DNA from: a virus | Taxonomy: Duplodnaviria; Heunggongvirae; Uroviricota; Caudoviricetes | IMG/VR virus record: IMGVR_UViG_2778261247_000004 | Length of the DNA: 26,352 nt | Direction: 5' to 3' (one strand) | In this document: piece after piece, positions 3,119 through 26,352 of the stretch | Layout: each line of letters opens with the position of its first letter | Numbering within the stretch: the stretch's first letter is position 1 | The notes under the pieces: model-generated | Databases searched by the model: none | What the model was told of the DNA's origin: nothing | The model's input: only the letters and a program-made list of their open reading frames with translations | Translations under genes and position numbers: made by a program

Positions 3119-3871
3119 ATGAACCTTGAAGCCTTACCGAAATATTACTCCCCAAAATCTCCAAAATTGAGCGATGACGCATCGGCGACAGGCTCGGGTG
3201 GTTTAACAATTACGGATGTAATGGCTGCGCAGGGGATGGTGCAGTCGAAAGCACCGCTTGGGTTTGCCTTATTCCTGGCAAAAGTTGGTGTTCAGGATCC
3301 TCAATTTGCGATTGAAGGTCTGCTCAATTACGCGATGGCACTGGATAACCCGACATTGAACAAATTGAGTGAAGAAACCCGGTTACAGATCATCCCTTAC
3401 CTTGTGAATTTTGCCTTTGCTGATTATTCCAGGTCTGCGGCAAGTAAGGCTCGCTGTGAGCATTGTACTGGTACTGGATTTCATAATGTATTGCGCGAAG
3501 TGGTGAAACATTCCAGAAGCGGGGAATCCGTTATCAAAGAAGAGTGGGTGAAGGAACTGTGTCAGCATTGTCATGGCAAGGGAGAAGTCAGCACGGCGTG
3601 CAGAGGGTGTAAGGGTAAAGGTATTGTCCTGGATGAAAAAAGAACCCGGCTTCATGGCACGCCTGTTTATAAGACTTGTGGGCGTTGCAATGGAAACCGG
3701 TTTAGCCGTTTACCGACTACACTGGCACGACGTCATGTCCAGAAGCTGGTTCCAGACCTGACTGATTATCAGTGGTACAAAGGATATGCAGACGTAATTG
3801 ATAAACTAGTAACAAAGTGCTGGCAGGAAGAAGCATATGCTGAAACACAATTGAGAAAGGTGACGAGATAA
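3119..3871 (+). CDS. Q: Late-gene antitermination protein Q (QuuQ-like, zinc-finger type)
   Basis: 250 aa from ATG 3119 (RBS GGAG about 7 nt upstream; the track start at 3077 overlaps the previous gene). Repeated CxxCxGxG motifs (CEHCTGTG, CQHCHGKG, CRGCKGKG, CGRCNGN). Position directly upstream of the promoter/terminator region and lysis cassette. Confidence 0.7.
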   Translation: MNLEALPKYYSPKSPKLSDDASATGSGGLTITDVMAAQGMVQSKAPLGFALFLAKVGVQDPQFAIEGLLNYAMALDNPTLNKLSEETRLQIIPYLVNFAFADYSRSAASKARCEHCTGTGFHNVLREVVKHSRSGESVIKEEWVKELCQHCHGKGEVSTACRGCKGKGIVLDEKRTRLHGTPVYKTCGRCNGNRFSRLPTTLARRHVQKLVPDLTDYQWYKGYADVIDKLVTKCWQEEAYAETQLRKVTR

Positions 3872-3889
3872 GTGATTTTCGCCGAAGAT

Positions 3890-3978
3890 AGTGACATGAA
3901 GCTTGCATTTTTCAAAAAATATGGATAAGATTTTCTCAACGATGGGCTTTGTATGTCTGCCGTTGATAATTTTCACGA
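3890..3978 (+). promoter_or_regulatory. Candidate Q-dependent late promoter (PR'-like) and qut region
   Basis: Intergenic AT-rich stretch between Q and the first terminator, with TTGCAT and TTGATA -35-like hexamers. Exact -10/-35 not resolved by eye. Confidence 0.3.
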
Positions 3979-4004
3979 ACCCGCTGTTGAGCGGGTTTTT
4001 ATTT
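3979..4004 (+). terminator. Rho-independent terminator (tR'-like) downstream of the late promoter
   Basis: ACCCGC-tgttga-GCGGGT hairpin followed by TTTTTATTT. Confidence 0.6.
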
Positions 4005-4056
4005 ACTTGTACTGAAACACATTATATAACCTCATATCAGTTAAAAAGGAGGTTGT

Positions 4057-4392
4057 ATGATTAATGCCGTTGAGTACAGATTACCGTTAGGAAATATCTC
4101 TCCAGAGAATCTTGACGCGTTGTCAGAACTTATCGTTAAGCATTCCGATAAATTTAATAACTATGTACTTAGTTCTATTTCTGATGATGATATTCGATAT
4201 TCTTACGATTACTACAATTTTGAAATCACAGAGATAGATGAATATGGGTTTCACTTTATAGCACCATATAGCTATTATGAAGGATGCGTTGACAATAACT
4301 TCTCAGGAGAGGTTGAAGGTTATGCAGAATACGAAATTATTGATAATGAATTAGTCTTCTCTCTTGAGGAACTACCTTGGGATGTAAAATAA
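4057..4392 (+). CDS. Hypothetical highly acidic, Tyr-rich small protein (cargo gene in the Q-holin slot)
   Basis: 111 aa ORF with strong RBS AAGGAGG 5 nt upstream of the ATG. Visibly AT-rich relative to flanking phage genes. About 24 Asp/Glu against 5 Lys/Arg, counted by eye. No family recognised. Confidence 0.6.
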   Translation: MINAVEYRLPLGNISPENLDALSELIVKHSDKFNNYVLSSISDDDIRYSYDYYNFEITEIDEYGFHFIAPYSYYEGCVDNNFSGEVEGYAEYEIIDNELVFSLEELPWDVK

Positions 4393-4403
4393 ATATCAAT
4401 AAT

Positions 4404-4435
4404 AAAGGCCGTAACGAACGGCCTTTATTATTATA
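4404..4435 (+). terminator. Rho-independent terminator after the acidic cargo ORF
   Basis: AAAGGCCGT-aacga-ACGGCCTTT hairpin (9 bp stem) followed by ATTATTAT; A-run upstream, so possibly bidirectional. Confidence 0.6.
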
Positions 4436-4543
4436 AAATCATCAATGCCTGATGAATTAGAATGTAATTTTCGAATTAATAATAAATCAACATATCATTT
4501 CACGCTCCGATTTTCTGTCGGAGGCGAAACTGCGGCTATTCAT

Positions 4544-4849: not shown

Positions 4850-5312
4850 TCCTCAGCGTAAAGCTTTCCTCGATATGGTGGCCTGGTCAGAAGGAACGGA
4901 TAATGGGCTACAACCGACACGTAATCATGGTTATGACGTCATTGTGGGCGGAGAAATATTCACTGATTACTCCGATCACCCTCGCAGACTTGTCACGCTA
5001 AACCCAAAACTCAAATCAACGGCTGCCGGGCGCTACCAGCTTCTTTCCCGCTGGTGGGATGCATACCGTAAACAGCTTGGACTGAAAGACTTCTCTCCAA
5101 AAAGCCAGGATGCTGTTGCACTGCAGCAGATTAAAGAGCGTGGTGCTTTACCGATGATTGATCGCGGTGATATTCGTCAGGCTATCGACCGTTGCAGCAA
5201 TATCTGGGCTTCACTGCCGGGAGCTGGTTATGGTCAGTTTGAGCATAAGGCTGACAGCCTGATTGCAAAATTCAAAGAAGCCGGCGGAACGGTCAAAGAG
5301 ATTCAGGTATGA
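4836..5312 (+). CDS. R: Endolysin, lambda R-type lytic transglycosylase
   Basis: 158 aa, near-identical over most of its length to phage lambda R as I recall it ([17 protein letters not shown]...[123 protein letters not shown]). Confidence 0.95.
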
Positions 5313-5746
5313 GCAGAGTAACGGTGATTATATCCGCTCTGGTTATCTGCATCATCGTCTGCTTGTCATGGGCTGTTGATAATTACCGTGATGACGCCAT
5401 CGTCTACAAAGTACAGCGCGATAAAGCCACATCCATCATCGCTGATATGCAGAAGCGTCAACGTAATGTAGCTGAACTCGATGCCAGATATACAAAGGAG
5501 CTTGCTGATGCTAATGCGACTATCGAAAGTCTTCGTGCTGATGTTTCTGCTGGGCATAAGCGCCTGCAAGTCGCCGCCACCTGTACAAAGTCAACGACCG
5601 GAGCCAGCGGCATGGGCGATGGAGAAAGCCCTAGACTTACAGCAGATGCTGAACTCCATTATTACCGTCTCCGAAGTGGAATCGACAAGATAACCTCACA
5701 GGTCAATTACTTGCAGGAGTATATCAGGACGCAATGTCCCAACTAA
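5309..5746 (+). CDS. Rz: Spanin inner-membrane subunit (i-spanin), lambda Rz-like
   Basis: 145 aa. N-terminal TM segment [22 protein letters not shown] plus coiled-coil periplasmic domain, closely resembling lambda Rz. Start overlaps the R stop (ATGA). Confidence 0.9.
5508..5693 (+). CDS. Rz1: Spanin outer-membrane lipoprotein subunit (o-spanin), Rz1-like, embedded in the +1 frame of Rz
   Basis: +1 frame ORF wholly inside Rz. Signal peptide with lipobox ([20 protein letters not shown]) then a Pro-rich mature region ([13 protein letters not shown]). RBS AAAGGAG about 8 nt upstream of ATG 5508. Confidence 0.75.
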
Positions 5747-5843
5747 TCACATTTTGAGGATATTTAACGTCTATGCTTTAATGATTTTATTCATTGTTTT
5801 ATAATCGCGAAGAATAATGATGAACTTGGCAAAGGATATGATT

Positions 5844-6068
5844 ATGCGTATTAAACCTCAAGATTTTAAGTTTGATGTGTTGACTGTTGCTGGTTACGCT
5901 AACCCTAAAGCTAAAACACATTTCGCACCTTCTGCTTCTGGATTTAATTTTAAATGGGAGTGGGAAGGGAAAATTTATGAGCTTCATATCGAGCAAGAAA
6001 AATTACAGTACCCTGATTTTATTCTTGAACGACTTTTTGATGCCGCAATTGAGATGGCTAAAAAATGA
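5844..6068 (+). CDS. Hypothetical small protein (AT-rich island, unknown function)
   Basis: ORF 5817-6068; preferred start ATG 5844 (RBS AAGGA about 8 nt upstream), giving about 74 aa. AT-rich; a TATAAT-like hexamer at about 5800-5805. No family recognised. Confidence 0.45.
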   Translation: MRIKPQDFKFDVLTVAGYANPKAKTHFAPSASGFNFKWEWEGKIYELHIEQEKLQYPDFILERLFDAAIEMAKK

Positions 6069-6174
6069 CAAAAATCACCGGATGGGGTTTTTGTTTATAG
6101 ATATTCACACATAGCCCTTGCATCTAGAACAGAAAATCTTGTCATGGCGCGGGGCTATGTTAGCAAAAATTTAT

Positions 6175-6615
6175 TTAATAGGATATTTTGTTTGCAGATT
6201 TAAGCTCTTTAAGAGTAGCGTCAAGTATATGTAAAAATAGAGAAGTGTCGCCATACTCATAATGTGGCTCGGATTTGTATTCTCTAATATAAATAAATCC
6301 ACCTTTGGATAAAAATAAATCAATCAGCTCGTTGTTATTTTCATCGGTTGGGTCAATGGCAGCAAACTTCAATACAGGAGCTTCATCAATGACTAGCAGT
6401 GTTTCTTTGAAAATAAGTTCTAGTTCATATGTTGAAAGTTTGAGGGTTAACCTATTTTTTTTATCTTTATTGAAAATTATTGTGTCGCCAAGAAAATCGT
6501 ATTCAGAGCTTGAGTCAATAATGTTATTCTTAAGTTTGAGAGATATTGCATCTAAAGCCTTTTTATGCTCTGCGCACTTAACAACTTTATGAACATCTAA
6601 ACTGGGGATACTCAT
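6175..6615 (-). CDS. Hypothetical protein, minus strand (AT-rich island, unknown function; candidate accessory gene)
   Basis: 147 aa from ATG at 6615 with RBS AGGTGG 8 nt upstream on the minus strand (track ORF reaches 6678). Strongly AT-rich. Opposite in orientation to every flanking phage gene. No TM segment and no motif I recognise. Confidence 0.5.
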   Translation of the reverse strand: MSIPSLDVHKVVKCAEHKKALDAISLKLKNNIIDSSSEYDFLGDTIIFNKDKKNRLTLKLSTYELELIFKETLLVIDEAPVLKFAAIDPTDENNNELIDLFLSKGGFIYIREYKSEPHYEYGDTSLFLHILDATLKELKSANKISY

Positions 6616-6717
6616 AATACAACCACCTATGTAAGAACTAAAGAGCATTGAGTCTATGTGATTAATATCAAGACCCAATTAAATTTTTTAAATTATTAGA
6701 GTTAGATCCCACTTTAA

Positions 6718-7068
6718 ATGCCCCCACGAACCCCAAAAGCCTGCCGCGTTCGCGGCTGCCGCCAAACCACCACTGATCCGTCAGGCTATTGTGAAAGCCA
6801 CAAAAGCGAAGGCTGGAAACAATACAAGCCAGGACAATCCCGTCACCAGCGCGGCTACGGTTCGAAGTGGGATGTTATCCGCGCGCGCGTGCTGAAGCGT
6901 GACAAAGGCCTGTGTCAGTTGTGCCTGCATGTCGGTGTGGTGCGTGAGGCGAAAACCGTTGACCACATCATCCCTAAAGCGCATGGCGGCACTGATGCAG
7001 ACTGCAATCTGCAGAGCCTGTGCTGGCCGTGTCATAAGGCGAAGACGGCCCGTGAACGACTGAAGTGA
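6718..7068 (+). CDS. Phage HNH endonuclease (terminase-associated type)
   Basis: 116 aa with CxxxGC...YC..H N-terminal zinc knuckle and HNH core (VDHIIPKAHGGTD...NLQSLCWPCHKAKT). Immediately upstream of the small terminase, as in HK97-like phages. Confidence 0.85.
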   Translation: MPPRTPKACRVRGCRQTTTDPSGYCESHKSEGWKQYKPGQSRHQRGYGSKWDVIRARVLKRDKGLCQLCLHVGVVREAKTVDHIIPKAHGGTDADCNLQSLCWPCHKAKTARERLK

Positions 7069-7092: not shown

Positions 7093-7160
7093 GAGGGGCG
7101 GGTCAAATCCCTGTGACCTGACGTCTTCCGGACTGCCCGCCCCATCGTTTTTTTATACCC
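7093..7160 (+). other. GC-rich inverted repeat / candidate cos (cohesive end) or packaging-recognition region
   Basis: GGGGCGGG ... CCCGCCCC inverted repeat flanking about 34 nt, followed by a T-run. Lies between HNH and TerS, where HK97-like phages carry cos. Could instead be a terminator. Confidence 0.3.
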
Positions 7161-24044: not shown

Positions 24045-24788
24045 ATGCATCGTATAGACACGAAAACCGCGCAGAAGGATAAGTTCGGCGCGGGTAAGAA
24101 CGGTTTTACCCGTGGTAACCCCCAGACAGGCACGCCTGCCACCGATCTGGATGATGACTACTTTGACATGTTGCAGGAAGAACTCTGCAGCGTGGTGGAG
24201 GCATCCGGTGCCAGTCTGGAGAAGGCGCGGCACGACCAGCTGCTTACCGCGCTTCGTGCGCTGCTGTTAAGCCGCAAGAATCCGTTTAGCGATATCAAAT
24301 CGGACGGCACGGTGAAAACGGCTCTCGAAAACCTTGGTTTGGGAGAAGGCTCTGCATTACCTGTTGGTGTGCCTGTTCCATGGCCTTCAGCCACACCGCC
24401 AACAGGCTGGCTGAAATGCAACGGTGCGGCTTTTTCTGCTGAAGAATACCCGGAACTGGCAAAGGCTTATCCGACAAATAAATTGCCTGATTTACGTGGT
24501 GAGTTTATTCGTGGCTGGGATGATGGGCGCGGCGTTGATTCAAGGCGTGCGGTGCTGTCAACACAAGAGCCAACTGTAGGTACTTTTTATGTGGAGCTAG
24601 CTATCATCTCGGGAACTTTGAGCGGCTCAGGTGCTAAATTTACCGATTCAGTAGGGATTGGATCAACCAGTAGTAACATTACCGTTAGCAACGGTAATGA
24701 CCAGTCCGTGTCGGGTACAGTGGCCGTTAACCCCGTCGATACCCGTCCACGCAACATTGCATTTAACTATATCGTGAGAGCAGCATAA
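24045..24788 (+). CDS. Tail fibre protein (constant N-terminal part plus currently expressed variable C-terminal part)
   Basis: 247 aa. Contains a phage tail-collar signature ([30 protein letters not shown]...[17 protein letters not shown]). The left inversion site lies inside it at 24322-24347. Confidence 0.8.
24322..24347. repeat. Left crossover site for a Hin/Gin/Pin-family serine invertase (hix/gix-like)
   Basis: TCTCGAAAACCTTGGTTTGGGAGAA has the AAACC-NN-GGTTT core of hix/gix/pix sites. Its reverse complement matches the right site over 13 consecutive bases. Confidence 0.6.
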
Positions 24789-25390
24789 TGGATAAAGCAA
24801 TATTAAATAGTGGACTTGTTGCTACAAAGGCAGGGGATATTACCGTTTATAACTATGATGGTGAAACTCGGGAATATATTTCCACTTCAAGTGAATATCT
24901 TGCCGTTGGTGTTGGTATCCCGGCATATTCCTGTCTGGATGCACCAGGTATACATAAGGCGGGTTATGCTATCTGTCGTTCTGTGAATTTAAATTCATGG
25001 GAATATGTGCCAGACCATCGCGGTGAAATCGTCTATAACACCGAAACGGGAGAATCAAAACAAATCACAGCACCGGGTGATTACCCCGAAAATACAACCA
25101 CTATTGCCCCATTAACGCCATACGATAAATGGGATGGTGAGAAATGGGTGACCGATACTGAGGCACAGCATAGCGCCGCAGTAGACGCGGCAGAAGCACA
25201 GCGTCAGTCACTGATTGATGCTGCAATGGCTTCCATCGGTCTGATTCAGCTGAAATTACAGGCCGGACGGAAGCTGATGCAGGCAGAAACAACCCGGCTT
25301 AACGCTGTGCTGGATTACATTGACGCGGTGACGGCAACAAATACCAGCACAGCGCCGGATGTCATCTGGCCTGAACTGCCGGAGGCGTAG
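24788..25390 (+). CDS. Tail fibre assembly protein (Tfa/U-like)
   Basis: 200 aa; TAATG overlap with the fibre gene; C-terminal Tfa signature (...LDYIDAVTATNTSTAPDVIWPELPEA). Confidence 0.8.
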   Translation: MDKAILNSGLVATKAGDITVYNYDGETREYISTSSEYLAVGVGIPAYSCLDAPGIHKAGYAICRSVNLNSWEYVPDHRGEIVYNTETGESKQITAPGDYPENTTTIAPLTPYDKWDGEKWVTDTEAQHSAAVDAAEAQRQSLIDAAMASIGLIQLKLQAGRKLMQAETTRLNAVLDYIDAVTATNTSTAPDVIWPELPEA

Positions 25391-25805
25391 GCCATTCAAT
25401 ATCTGGCGCACAGGAAGTATCGACCAGTTCCAGTGCGTCCAGATAATCCAGCCACGAATTATATTGCGCCAGTTCCTCGCCTTTCAGACGACCAATAGCA
25501 GCTTTGCCAGGCCACTGATGGGTATTGATGTAGGTATTGACTTCTGAAACCAAAGATATTTTTTTCATTTCAGCCGTCAACACCTCATCCTCTTTTGAAG
25601 GGGGTGGGGAATTAATCCATACTGGCCGTCCTGAACTGTCAGCGCCAATTTCTTTCCCTTCTGGATGCAGACCAAGAAATTGCTCATATGTTTCTCTGGT
25701 AATTTCAATAACATCATCAGGAAGCGTTCCCGCATCCTCATATTCTGGAAACAATTCTTGCAGATAAAAACTTTTACTTCCGGGTGAAAAGAATACTGAG
25801 TTCAT
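25362..25805 (-). CDS. Alternative tail fibre assembly protein (Tfa'/U'-like), minus strand
   Basis: 147 aa, convergent with and 3'-overlapping the + strand tfa. C-terminal Tfa signature (WLDYLDALELVDTSCAPDIEWPTPP). Confidence 0.75.
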   Translation of the reverse strand: MNSVFFSPGSKSFYLQELFPEYEDAGTLPDDVIEITRETYEQFLGLHPEGKEIGADSSGRPVWINSPPPSKEDEVLTAEMKKISLVSEVNTYINTHQWPGKAAIGRLKGEELAQYNSWLDYLDALELVDTSCAPDIEWPTPPAVQAR

Positions 25806-25807
25806 TA

Positions 25808-26352
25808 TTACCGTCCAATGATTAACGCTGAGACGCTGGTATCTGAAGGAAAGGCTGCATTCAGTGGTTTGTCGACTTTGAACACAATCGTATTATTCCC
25901 CCTGACAGCGGCAAAAGAACAAACCGCCGTCGCGTATGAACCTGTAATATTACTGGATACACCACCATAAGCTGTTGTTGATACCAGAGGGATAACGCCC
26001 AGCACCTTATTAGGAAATACAAAGGGCAATGTGGCTGTGGCAATATAAGACTTATTAGAACCTGTGATGGCATAAGCATTATCAGTCATTCCATTCATCG
26101 CCACTGGGCCGCTTATACTTACAGTAACCATCTGAATGATTAGCCCGTCAGGTTGACGAATCACAAAATTTCCATTGCTACCAGTAACCGTCCAGAAAGA
26201 CATATCAGGGATTTGGTTTTCCCCGTTGCCCACATTCCGTTTTGCCGCTTCTCCCAAACCAACGTTTATGAAAATGGTAACCGGCTCATTTAAACCGTCT
26301 GGTCTGTTTCCTCCGGCTCTACAAAAATAATGTCCATCATTTTTAATGGACA
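25808..26352 (-). CDS. Alternative tail fibre variable C-terminal segment (Sv'-like), minus strand; frame stays open to the window edge
   Basis: The track ORF starts at TTG 26257, but my translation of the same frame stays open through 26352 (...PDGLNEPVTIFINVGLGEAAKRN...). Shares an N.GLGE junction with the + strand fibre exactly at the inverted repeat. Stop is 2 nt before the tfa' start. Confidence 0.6.
   Translation of the reverse strand, partial: SIKNDGHYFCRAGGNRPDGLNEPVTIFINVGLGEAAKRNVGNGENQIPDMSFWTVTGSNGNFVIRQPDGLIIQMVTVSISGPVAMNGMTDNAYAITGSNKSYIATATLPFVFPNKVLGVIPLVSTTAYGGVSSNITGSYATAVCSFAAVRGNNTIVFKVDKPLNAAFPSDTSVSALIIGR
26246..26271. repeat. Right crossover site (inverted copy) for a serine invertase
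   Basis: TTCTCCCAAACCAACGTTTATGAAAA. The central dinucleotide AA is the reverse complement of the left site's TT, as required for inversion. Confidence 0.6.

Follow-up and report, generated by a model that had tools for sequence, protein, structure and literature searches.

The locus considered here raises the question of whether a strikingly AT-rich interval of roughly 1 kb, lying between the lysis genes and the packaging genes of an Escherichia coli prophage, holds a single accessory system of an undescribed kind. The window, by which we mean the whole stretch of DNA that was analyzed (26,352 nucleotides; IMG/VR record IMGVR_UViG_2778261247_000004), had been inspected previously from its letters alone. 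The original prediction was that this interval (positions 5747-6717) carries two convergent genes that together might constitute a system for defense or superinfection exclusion, or a toxin/immunity pair. The reading that we favor, and consider probable rather than secure, is that the island consists of two independent single-gene morons in a recombination hotspot between lysis and packaging functions, and is not one system. The two genes are referred to below as A and B.

The prophage and its AT-rich island

The window is 100% identical to sequence in ATCC 11775 and in many ST95-type ExPEC/APEC genomes, including those of S88, BEN2908, and ExPEC XM, and it is a prophage of ST95-type ExPEC/APEC E. 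coli. In the neighborhood of the island, the ORF list and RefSeq annotation place on the + strand genes for a Q-type antiterminator, holin, lysozyme, and Rz, then for an HNH endonuclease, the small (P27-family) and large terminases, portal, HK97-type protease, and capsid. The head module is HK97-type. The flanks are co-directional, as had been described, with the genes for holin, lysozyme, and Rz to the left, up to 5746, and those for HNH, TerS, and TerL to the right, starting at 6718, all on the + strand. Immediately to the left of the island is the last gene of the lysis cassette, encoding the Rz i-spanin or "lysis protein" (5309-5746, + strand), and immediately to the right is the gene for the HNH endonuclease (6718-7068, + strand), ahead of that for the P27-family small terminase.

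Some features of the surrounding sequence are recorded here in their own right. An Rz1 ORF is embedded in the +1 frame inside Rz at 5481-5693 (+ strand), with the lipobox (…LLGISAC) and proline-rich stretch typical of an Rz1 o-spanin; RefSeq labels just the outer "lysis protein" at this position, leaving the embedded ORF without annotation. Between the HNH stop codon at 7068 and TerS, at approximately 7093-7143, a G-rich inverted repeat (GGGGCGGG … CCCGCCCC) is followed by a T-run and might serve as a cos site, as a recognition site for terminase, or alternatively as a terminator. A second AT-rich dip (3750-4500, GC 0.30-0.37) lies between the Q-type antiterminator and the holin, where an ORF of 111 aa (4057-4392, + strand; GC 0.33) matches phrog_13663, a family with function unassigned, at E 9e-54. 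The antiterminator-to-holin interval is the other classic cargo slot of lambdoid phages and is the one in which Stx phages carry stx. At the right end of the window, two minus-strand ORFs (25362-25805, 147 aa, and 25808-26257, 149 aa) come after the + strand genes at 24045-25390, a layout that would resemble an invertible tail-fiber segment if those + strand genes are tail-fiber genes.

The island has a GC content of 0.330, compared with 0.529 for the window as a whole. Just 0.05% of all 971-bp segments of the window (mean GC 0.531, S.D. 0.054) are as low in GC, the lowest of all starting at 5749. Genes A and B have GC contents of 0.36 and 0.32 and GC3 values of 0.25 and 0.29, respectively, as against GC contents of 0.48 for the flanking Rz gene and 0.58 for that of HNH. 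The observation that a stretch of about 1 kb is AT-rich between GC-richer flanks is therefore borne out by windowed GC and GC3, the island being both deviant in composition and the GC minimum of the window.

That minimum coincides with mosaic junctions. On the right, the sequence shared with one phage and four further prophages restarts at 6711-6718, at most a few bases from where HNH translation begins (6718); on the left, homology to other prophages stops at or before 5736 (5736 in the best case). Because homology stops and restarts at these points, the boundaries originally drawn for the island can be identified as recombination junctions. A repeat search returned short repeats at chance level only, with no att-like or IS-like ends, and an insertion of the transposon type is therefore ruled out for the island. 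No RNA family was found when the window was searched against Rfam, and a consensus scan for promoters and terminators returned sites at chance level.

A variable slot between lysis and packaging genes

The island is present in 106 of 5426 complete E. coli genomes, always in the chromosome. Identity is at least 99% in 105 of these, and in the remaining one a match of 72% identity covers gene B alone. More than 4000 genomes contain the Rz and HNH sequences of the flanks, and the content of the slot was compared wherever the two flanks stand close together. E. coli A42 carries iss, a homologue of bor, on the − strand at exactly the Rz-to-HNH junction, FDAARGOS_1265 carries the gene for a DUF2441 protein, and E17 carries that for a DUF6979 protein together with an ORF of 67 aa. 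In 0H23 the slot is occupied by ORFs of 50 and 74 aa, in ARL09/232 by an ORF of 76 aa, a B homologue, and an ORF of 58 aa, and in phage vB_EcoM-720R4 by 26 bp only. The cargo thus varies between the same flanks in related prophages, the Rz-to-HNH junction is a true mosaic hotspot, and the earlier description of it as the moron slot of lambdoid phages proves to be accurate. The island (5747-6717) is replaceable cargo, at present filling a recombination hotspot that separates the lysis cassette from the HNH/terminase packaging module. Variable moron cargo between lysis and packaging genes is a textbook kind of element, and is ordinary for lambdoid prophages.

Gene A

Gene A (5844-6068, + strand) is present as first described and encodes a soluble protein of 74 aa that RefSeq annotates as a hypothetical protein (WP_001220676.1). 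A putative −10 hexamer, TATAAT, lies at 5800-5805 (+ strand) with a weak −35 element, TTTAAT, 17 nt upstream, and the ribosome-binding site, AAGGA, lies at 5832-5836 (+ strand), 7 nt before the ATG. The hexamer is kept at −41 to −48 from the ATG in the window and in five other loci (L006, L009, L013, L015, and L041), the surrounding DNA of which diverges. In more distant homologues the corresponding position reads GATAAT, TAGAAT, or TGTAAT, and in L040, a close variant, it reads TATTCT. All five A loci that were aligned retain AAAGGA. Immediately beyond the stop codon, an A-tract, GC-core, and T-tract at 6067-6095 are predicted to form a hairpin (fold z = −3.8 on the + strand) that looks like a bidirectional intrinsic terminator. 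A GC hairpin and T-run occur downstream of the A stop in all nine A loci, within 10 nt of it in eight. Gene A therefore has the appearance of a self-contained cassette, made up of a putative −10 box, a ribosome-binding site, an ORF, and a predicted intrinsic terminator.

Homologues of A sharing 54-78% identity are found in prophages of Enterobacter, Citrobacter, and Pantoea and on IMG/VR contigs. The family is 72-74 aa in length and aligns without internal gaps down to 54% identity, with a C-terminal helix (EKLxFPDLILERLFEAAIEMAKK) that is nearly invariant. Pairwise dN/dS values of 0.03-0.17 indicate that A is a real protein-coding gene under purifying selection. The predicted protein is mildly acidic and soluble, having no transmembrane segment and no signal peptide (maximum KD19 0.44). 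Its AF2 model (pLDDT 68) shows an alpha-beta3-alpha fold, a generic sandwich, for which the best structural matches are a designed protein, ribosome hibernation factors, and uncharacterized phage proteins; none is a functional match.

The A loci that were followed come from Enterobacter asburiae, Citrobacter freundii, and metagenomic and IMG/VR contigs. A is co-directional with the flanking long ORFs in nine of nine loci and, in those with gene calls, adjoins a PF03245 Rz gene, lying approximately 90-105 bp after its end. Among the four IMG/VR loci that carry A alone, tblastn located an Rz homologue just upstream of A in two. The genes that follow A in the Enterobacter and Citrobacter loci are other cargo on the minus strand, either a DUF2158 gene and an ORF of 80 aa or an ORF of 65 aa, and then a Terminase_2-type packaging module; in L015 they are ORFs of 206 and 78 aa. 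B is absent from all of these loci.

Gene B

Gene B (6175-6615, − strand) encodes a soluble protein, annotated in RefSeq as a hypothetical protein (WP_000026993.1). The original prediction placed the ORF correctly but gave its length as 147 aa; the product has 146. The ribosome-binding site proposed for it, AGGTGG, is found at 6623-6628, 7 nt before the ATG and within the divergent intergenic region (6616-6717, − strand) that separates B from HNH. This region is approximately 72% conserved, including a TTGATA block, with the corresponding region of L003, which belongs to a branch of B proteins of 63% identity. A search of 6616-6717 for a sigma-70 promoter of B gave none that was convincing, the consensus scan performing no better than chance. 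Just downstream of the B stop codon, at 6109-6160, a second and longer hairpin is predicted (CATAGCCC...GGGCTATG), and B homologues in other loci have canonical terminator hairpins 3′ of the gene.

An indexed search of 5.8 billion proteins yielded a B family of 16 clusters, those with a named source coming from E. coli, Salmonella, Citrobacter koseri, Atlantibacter, and Lelliottia, and a full HMMER pass over 1.84 billion representatives yielded six B relatives only. An alignment of 13 members shows a length of 143-146 aa and few indels down to 27% identity. In pairs with unsaturated synonymous sites, dN/dS is 0.17-0.40, which argues that B is a real protein-coding gene under purifying selection; a coding signature, in the form of dN/dS well below 1, is thus found for A and B alike. 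The B protein has a pI of 5.4, a charge of about −5, and no signal peptide or transmembrane segment (maximum KD19 1.12), as expected of a soluble protein. Its invariant positions are mostly hydrophobic, with D7, K18, K29, G106, and E112 in addition, and the 13-member alignment contains no conserved pattern of Cys, His, or Ser. The AF2 model of B, with a pLDDT of 43, is unusable.

The layout around B recurs. In most of the 18 loci compared, B runs opposite to the long ORFs beside it; 14 of the loci have such ORFs to left and right, and in 12 of these B is antisense to both. It comes right behind the lysis cassette, of which at least three types are represented, and ahead of the genes for HNH and HK97-type terminases. 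Its homologues have a GC content of 27-35% everywhere, in contexts of approximately 50%.

Other ORFs accompany B in some branches of the family. In the 63%-identity branch (L003, L008, and L029-L034), an extra ORF of 58 aa, c3, lies upstream on the strand of B (6602-6778, − strand, in L003), and an ORF of 76 aa, a3, usually lies between the spanin gene and B where downstream sequence exists; the window has neither c3 nor a3. The most divergent homologues, with 27-33% identity (L016, 3887-5922; L019, 4447-6924; L021, 5467-6924; L036, 3449-5924), stand head-to-head, across a 76-nt gap, with the gene for a conserved protein of 485 aa, the N terminus of which gives a weak match to GT2 glycosyltransferases (E 0.003). 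Most of these loci also have a gene for a protein of 195-198 aa inside the late operon, between lysis and HNH.

Broken alleles of gene B

Within B, a homopolymer at 6455-6462 (T8 on the + strand, and hence A8 on the coding strand, in codons for D-K-K-N) is a frameshift hot spot. UTI89 and related strains have T7 here, by which B is cut to a product of 55 aa, and RefSeq annotates gene A only in these genomes. When full-length copies of the island were sampled evenly down the ranking, 16 of 38 (approximately 40%) had a 1-bp deletion, with the A7 allele shown for UTI89. Truncated B is present on 871 contigs and intact B on at least 1000. The tract is also the site of an in-frame codon loss in P0002, and P0020 and P0003 represent independent truncations of B, the former at the same tract. 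A further lesion is found in L005 (APEC E18006), where IS1B abuts the island at approximately 6531 (window equivalent), inside gene B. In this genome the lysis genes, gene A, and most of B have been replaced, to the left of IS1B, by early-region remnants, and the prophage is therefore one in decay.

Gene A is intact in the genomes with frameshifted B that were examined. The frequency with which B is broken implies that it is dispensable for keeping the prophage and is of conditional value at best.

Family, structure, and literature searches

The original prediction could assign neither protein to a recognized family, and database comparison does not alter this: when A, B, and the relatives aligned to them were searched against Pfam, PHROGs, NCBIfam, and PADLOC, the matches were all below threshold. 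These matches, to YueH, DUF1062, PDC-M24A, and phrog_33369, were dismissed as uninformative. The suggestion that the island might contain a known defense system found no support in PADLOC-DB 2.0 (5027 models), for which the best match, PDC-M24A, extends over 31 residues in three of the 13 B family members (E 0.011-0.016) and is not significant. Profile searches against PDB sequences gave nothing below E 0.06, and tblastn of A and B gave no match in 50,697 deposited phage genomes or 72,556 plasmids. The GTDB species representatives include no relative of B and one of A, in Pantoea latae. A literature search on accession numbers and locus tags found no mention of either protein; a paper on GiPD474 was set aside as describing an unrelated ATPase. 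As judged by these comparisons, A and B appear to be two uncharacterized, narrow-range protein families that belong to no described family.

Function and alternative explanations

In the reading of two independent morons, gene A is an autonomous cassette that sits directly behind the spanin gene in the sense direction. Because this cassette has its own −10 box and is sense-oriented behind the spanin gene, A may be made both from its putative promoter in the lysogen and by late read-through. B is antisense to the late operon, and this bor/iss-like layout suggests that it would be expressed in the resting prophage and silenced by converging late transcription during lytic growth. Both proteins are best read as small, soluble, and non-enzymatic. 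In the case of B, the largely hydrophobic character of the invariant residues and the lack of a Cys, His, or Ser pattern point to a binding protein rather than an enzyme, and for A and B, neither of which has a catalytic signature, the most likely mode of action is binding to another protein.

The idea that A and B constitute one two-gene system, acting as a unit in the manner of a toxin/antitoxin or sensor/effector defense pair, draws on their being adjacent and convergent with a terminator region in common, and on their joint inheritance, both in the 105 E. coli genomes where identity is at least 99% and in one diverged copy of the island. It fares badly when the distribution of the genes is considered. 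A occurs without B in eight distinct loci and B without A in 14, and the two are together only in the present island and one close variant (L035/L040), which has the same flanks, an A 92% identical, and a B that is 89% identical and itself frameshifted. In the large share of carriers in which B is frameshifted, A is intact, and this argues against B as an antitoxin or immunity partner of A. PADLOC and toxin-antitoxin families gave no match, and comparison of the A family with the B family by hhalign revealed no relation. The pair hypothesis is thus largely refuted by distribution, to the extent that we regard it as hardly credible; A and B are two unrelated, independently travelling genes. Taken by itself, A might be an accessory of the lytic program, expressed with the late operon and serving, for example, to tune lysis or late gene expression. 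Such a role would explain its constant place behind the spanin gene, and would be in keeping with its co-directionality and its fixed spacing from Rz, with the very strong purifying selection acting on it, and with the near-invariance of its C-terminal helix. We nevertheless think it rather unlikely, since the conserved −10 box and terminator fit an autonomous unit, the gene is AT-rich like foreign cargo and absent from every deposited phage genome searched, and related phages and prophages, such as vB_EcoM-720R4 and L022-L025, respectively, manage lysis and packaging in its absence.

For gene B, the abundance of broken alleles invites the view that it is dead weight in this lineage, a decaying remnant kept by linkage only. 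The deletion in some 16 of 38 evenly sampled copies, the truncated product on 871 contigs, the independent truncations in P0003 and P0020, and the IS1 truncation in another strain are all as this view would have it. It is improbable all the same, because the family has kept its length and frame to 27% identity with dN/dS of 0.17-0.40, the intact allele is found on at least 1000 contigs, and position and orientation are kept in most of the 18 loci. A different proposal, that B is a counter-defense or host-takeover factor produced from its own promoter as soon as the adjacent DNA end enters a new cell, takes its appeal from the small, acidic, and non-enzymatic character of the protein and from the location of the gene, which adjoins the HNH/terminase junction and lies no more than approximately 0.6 kb from the presumed cos end; this junction marks the genome end in HK97-type phages. 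Yet 2-4 kb separate B from HNH in the divergent branch, with glycosyltransferase-like genes between, and the charge of B, at about −5, does not approach that of DNA mimics, so that we consider an entry function very improbable.

Returning to the reading of two independent morons, we commit to the view that B is probably a lysogen-expressed accessory factor of conditional value, dispensable for the phage. Whether that value lies in action against other phages, through superinfection exclusion or abortive-type defense, is more doubtful: the position, orientation, patchy distribution, and moderately fast evolutionary rate of B, together with analogy, make this the role that we prefer to guess at, although it is less likely than not. 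The frequent loss of B would be equally well explained if it had no useful function in this lineage. A bolder and correspondingly unlikely version would have the B family as an undescribed single-protein factor of approximately 145 aa, restricted to Enterobacteriaceae prophages and always encoded antisense right after the lysis cassette, that is produced by the resting prophage and blocks superinfecting phages or another mobile element by binding a phage protein, with the A8 tract as an on/off switch between ST95 sublineages and A as a second, independent moron of the inhibitor type.

The finding so far documents one more variable cargo slot and corrects the notion of a two-gene system. Were a phenotype to be established for A or B, it would mean a new small, single-gene prophage accessory factor in ST95 ExPEC/APEC, a lineage of clinical importance to which UTI89, S88, NU14, and the E. 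coli type strain belong, and natural knock-out alleles of B already exist for comparison.

Comparison with known systems

In phage lambda, bor is a lysogen-expressed gene that follows Rz and is encoded on the other strand. It and E. coli iss resemble B in occupying the same slot in antisense orientation, iss of A42 being on the − strand at exactly this junction, and in being single genes that are dispensable for the phage. The proteins are quite different: Bor and Iss are outer-membrane lipoproteins of approximately 97 aa with a signal peptide and lipobox, whereas B is a predicted cytoplasmic protein of 146 aa with no signal peptide or transmembrane segment. Neither A nor B matched Iss from the same slot by BLASTP, and neither has a hydrophobic N terminus, by which a Bor/Iss lipoprotein was rejected for both. 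A resemblance of B to the fold of the SycE/CesT-type (type III secretion class I chaperone-like) proteins, alpha-beta3-alpha-beta2-alpha, comes from matches to the model with a pLDDT of 43 and is not reliable, and no sequence-level match to these chaperones was found.

Morons that confer exclusion or defense through single proteins include HK97 gp15, P22 SieA, and lambda RexAB. They are like A and B in being small prophage accessory genes outside the core modules, fast-evolving and patchy in distribution. Many of them, in contrast, are membrane proteins, whereas A and B are predicted to be soluble and have no PADLOC homology.

The closest parallel is with morons as a class, which were defined for HK97/HK022 and the P22-like phages as independently expressed genes inserted in a phage operon (PMC2629481). 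No structural difference separates these from A and B, which are known here from sequence alone. Like them, A and B are present or absent between syntenic phages and deviate in base composition. Each is also followed by a predicted terminator, and gene A has in addition a putative consensus −10 box, conserved in six loci.
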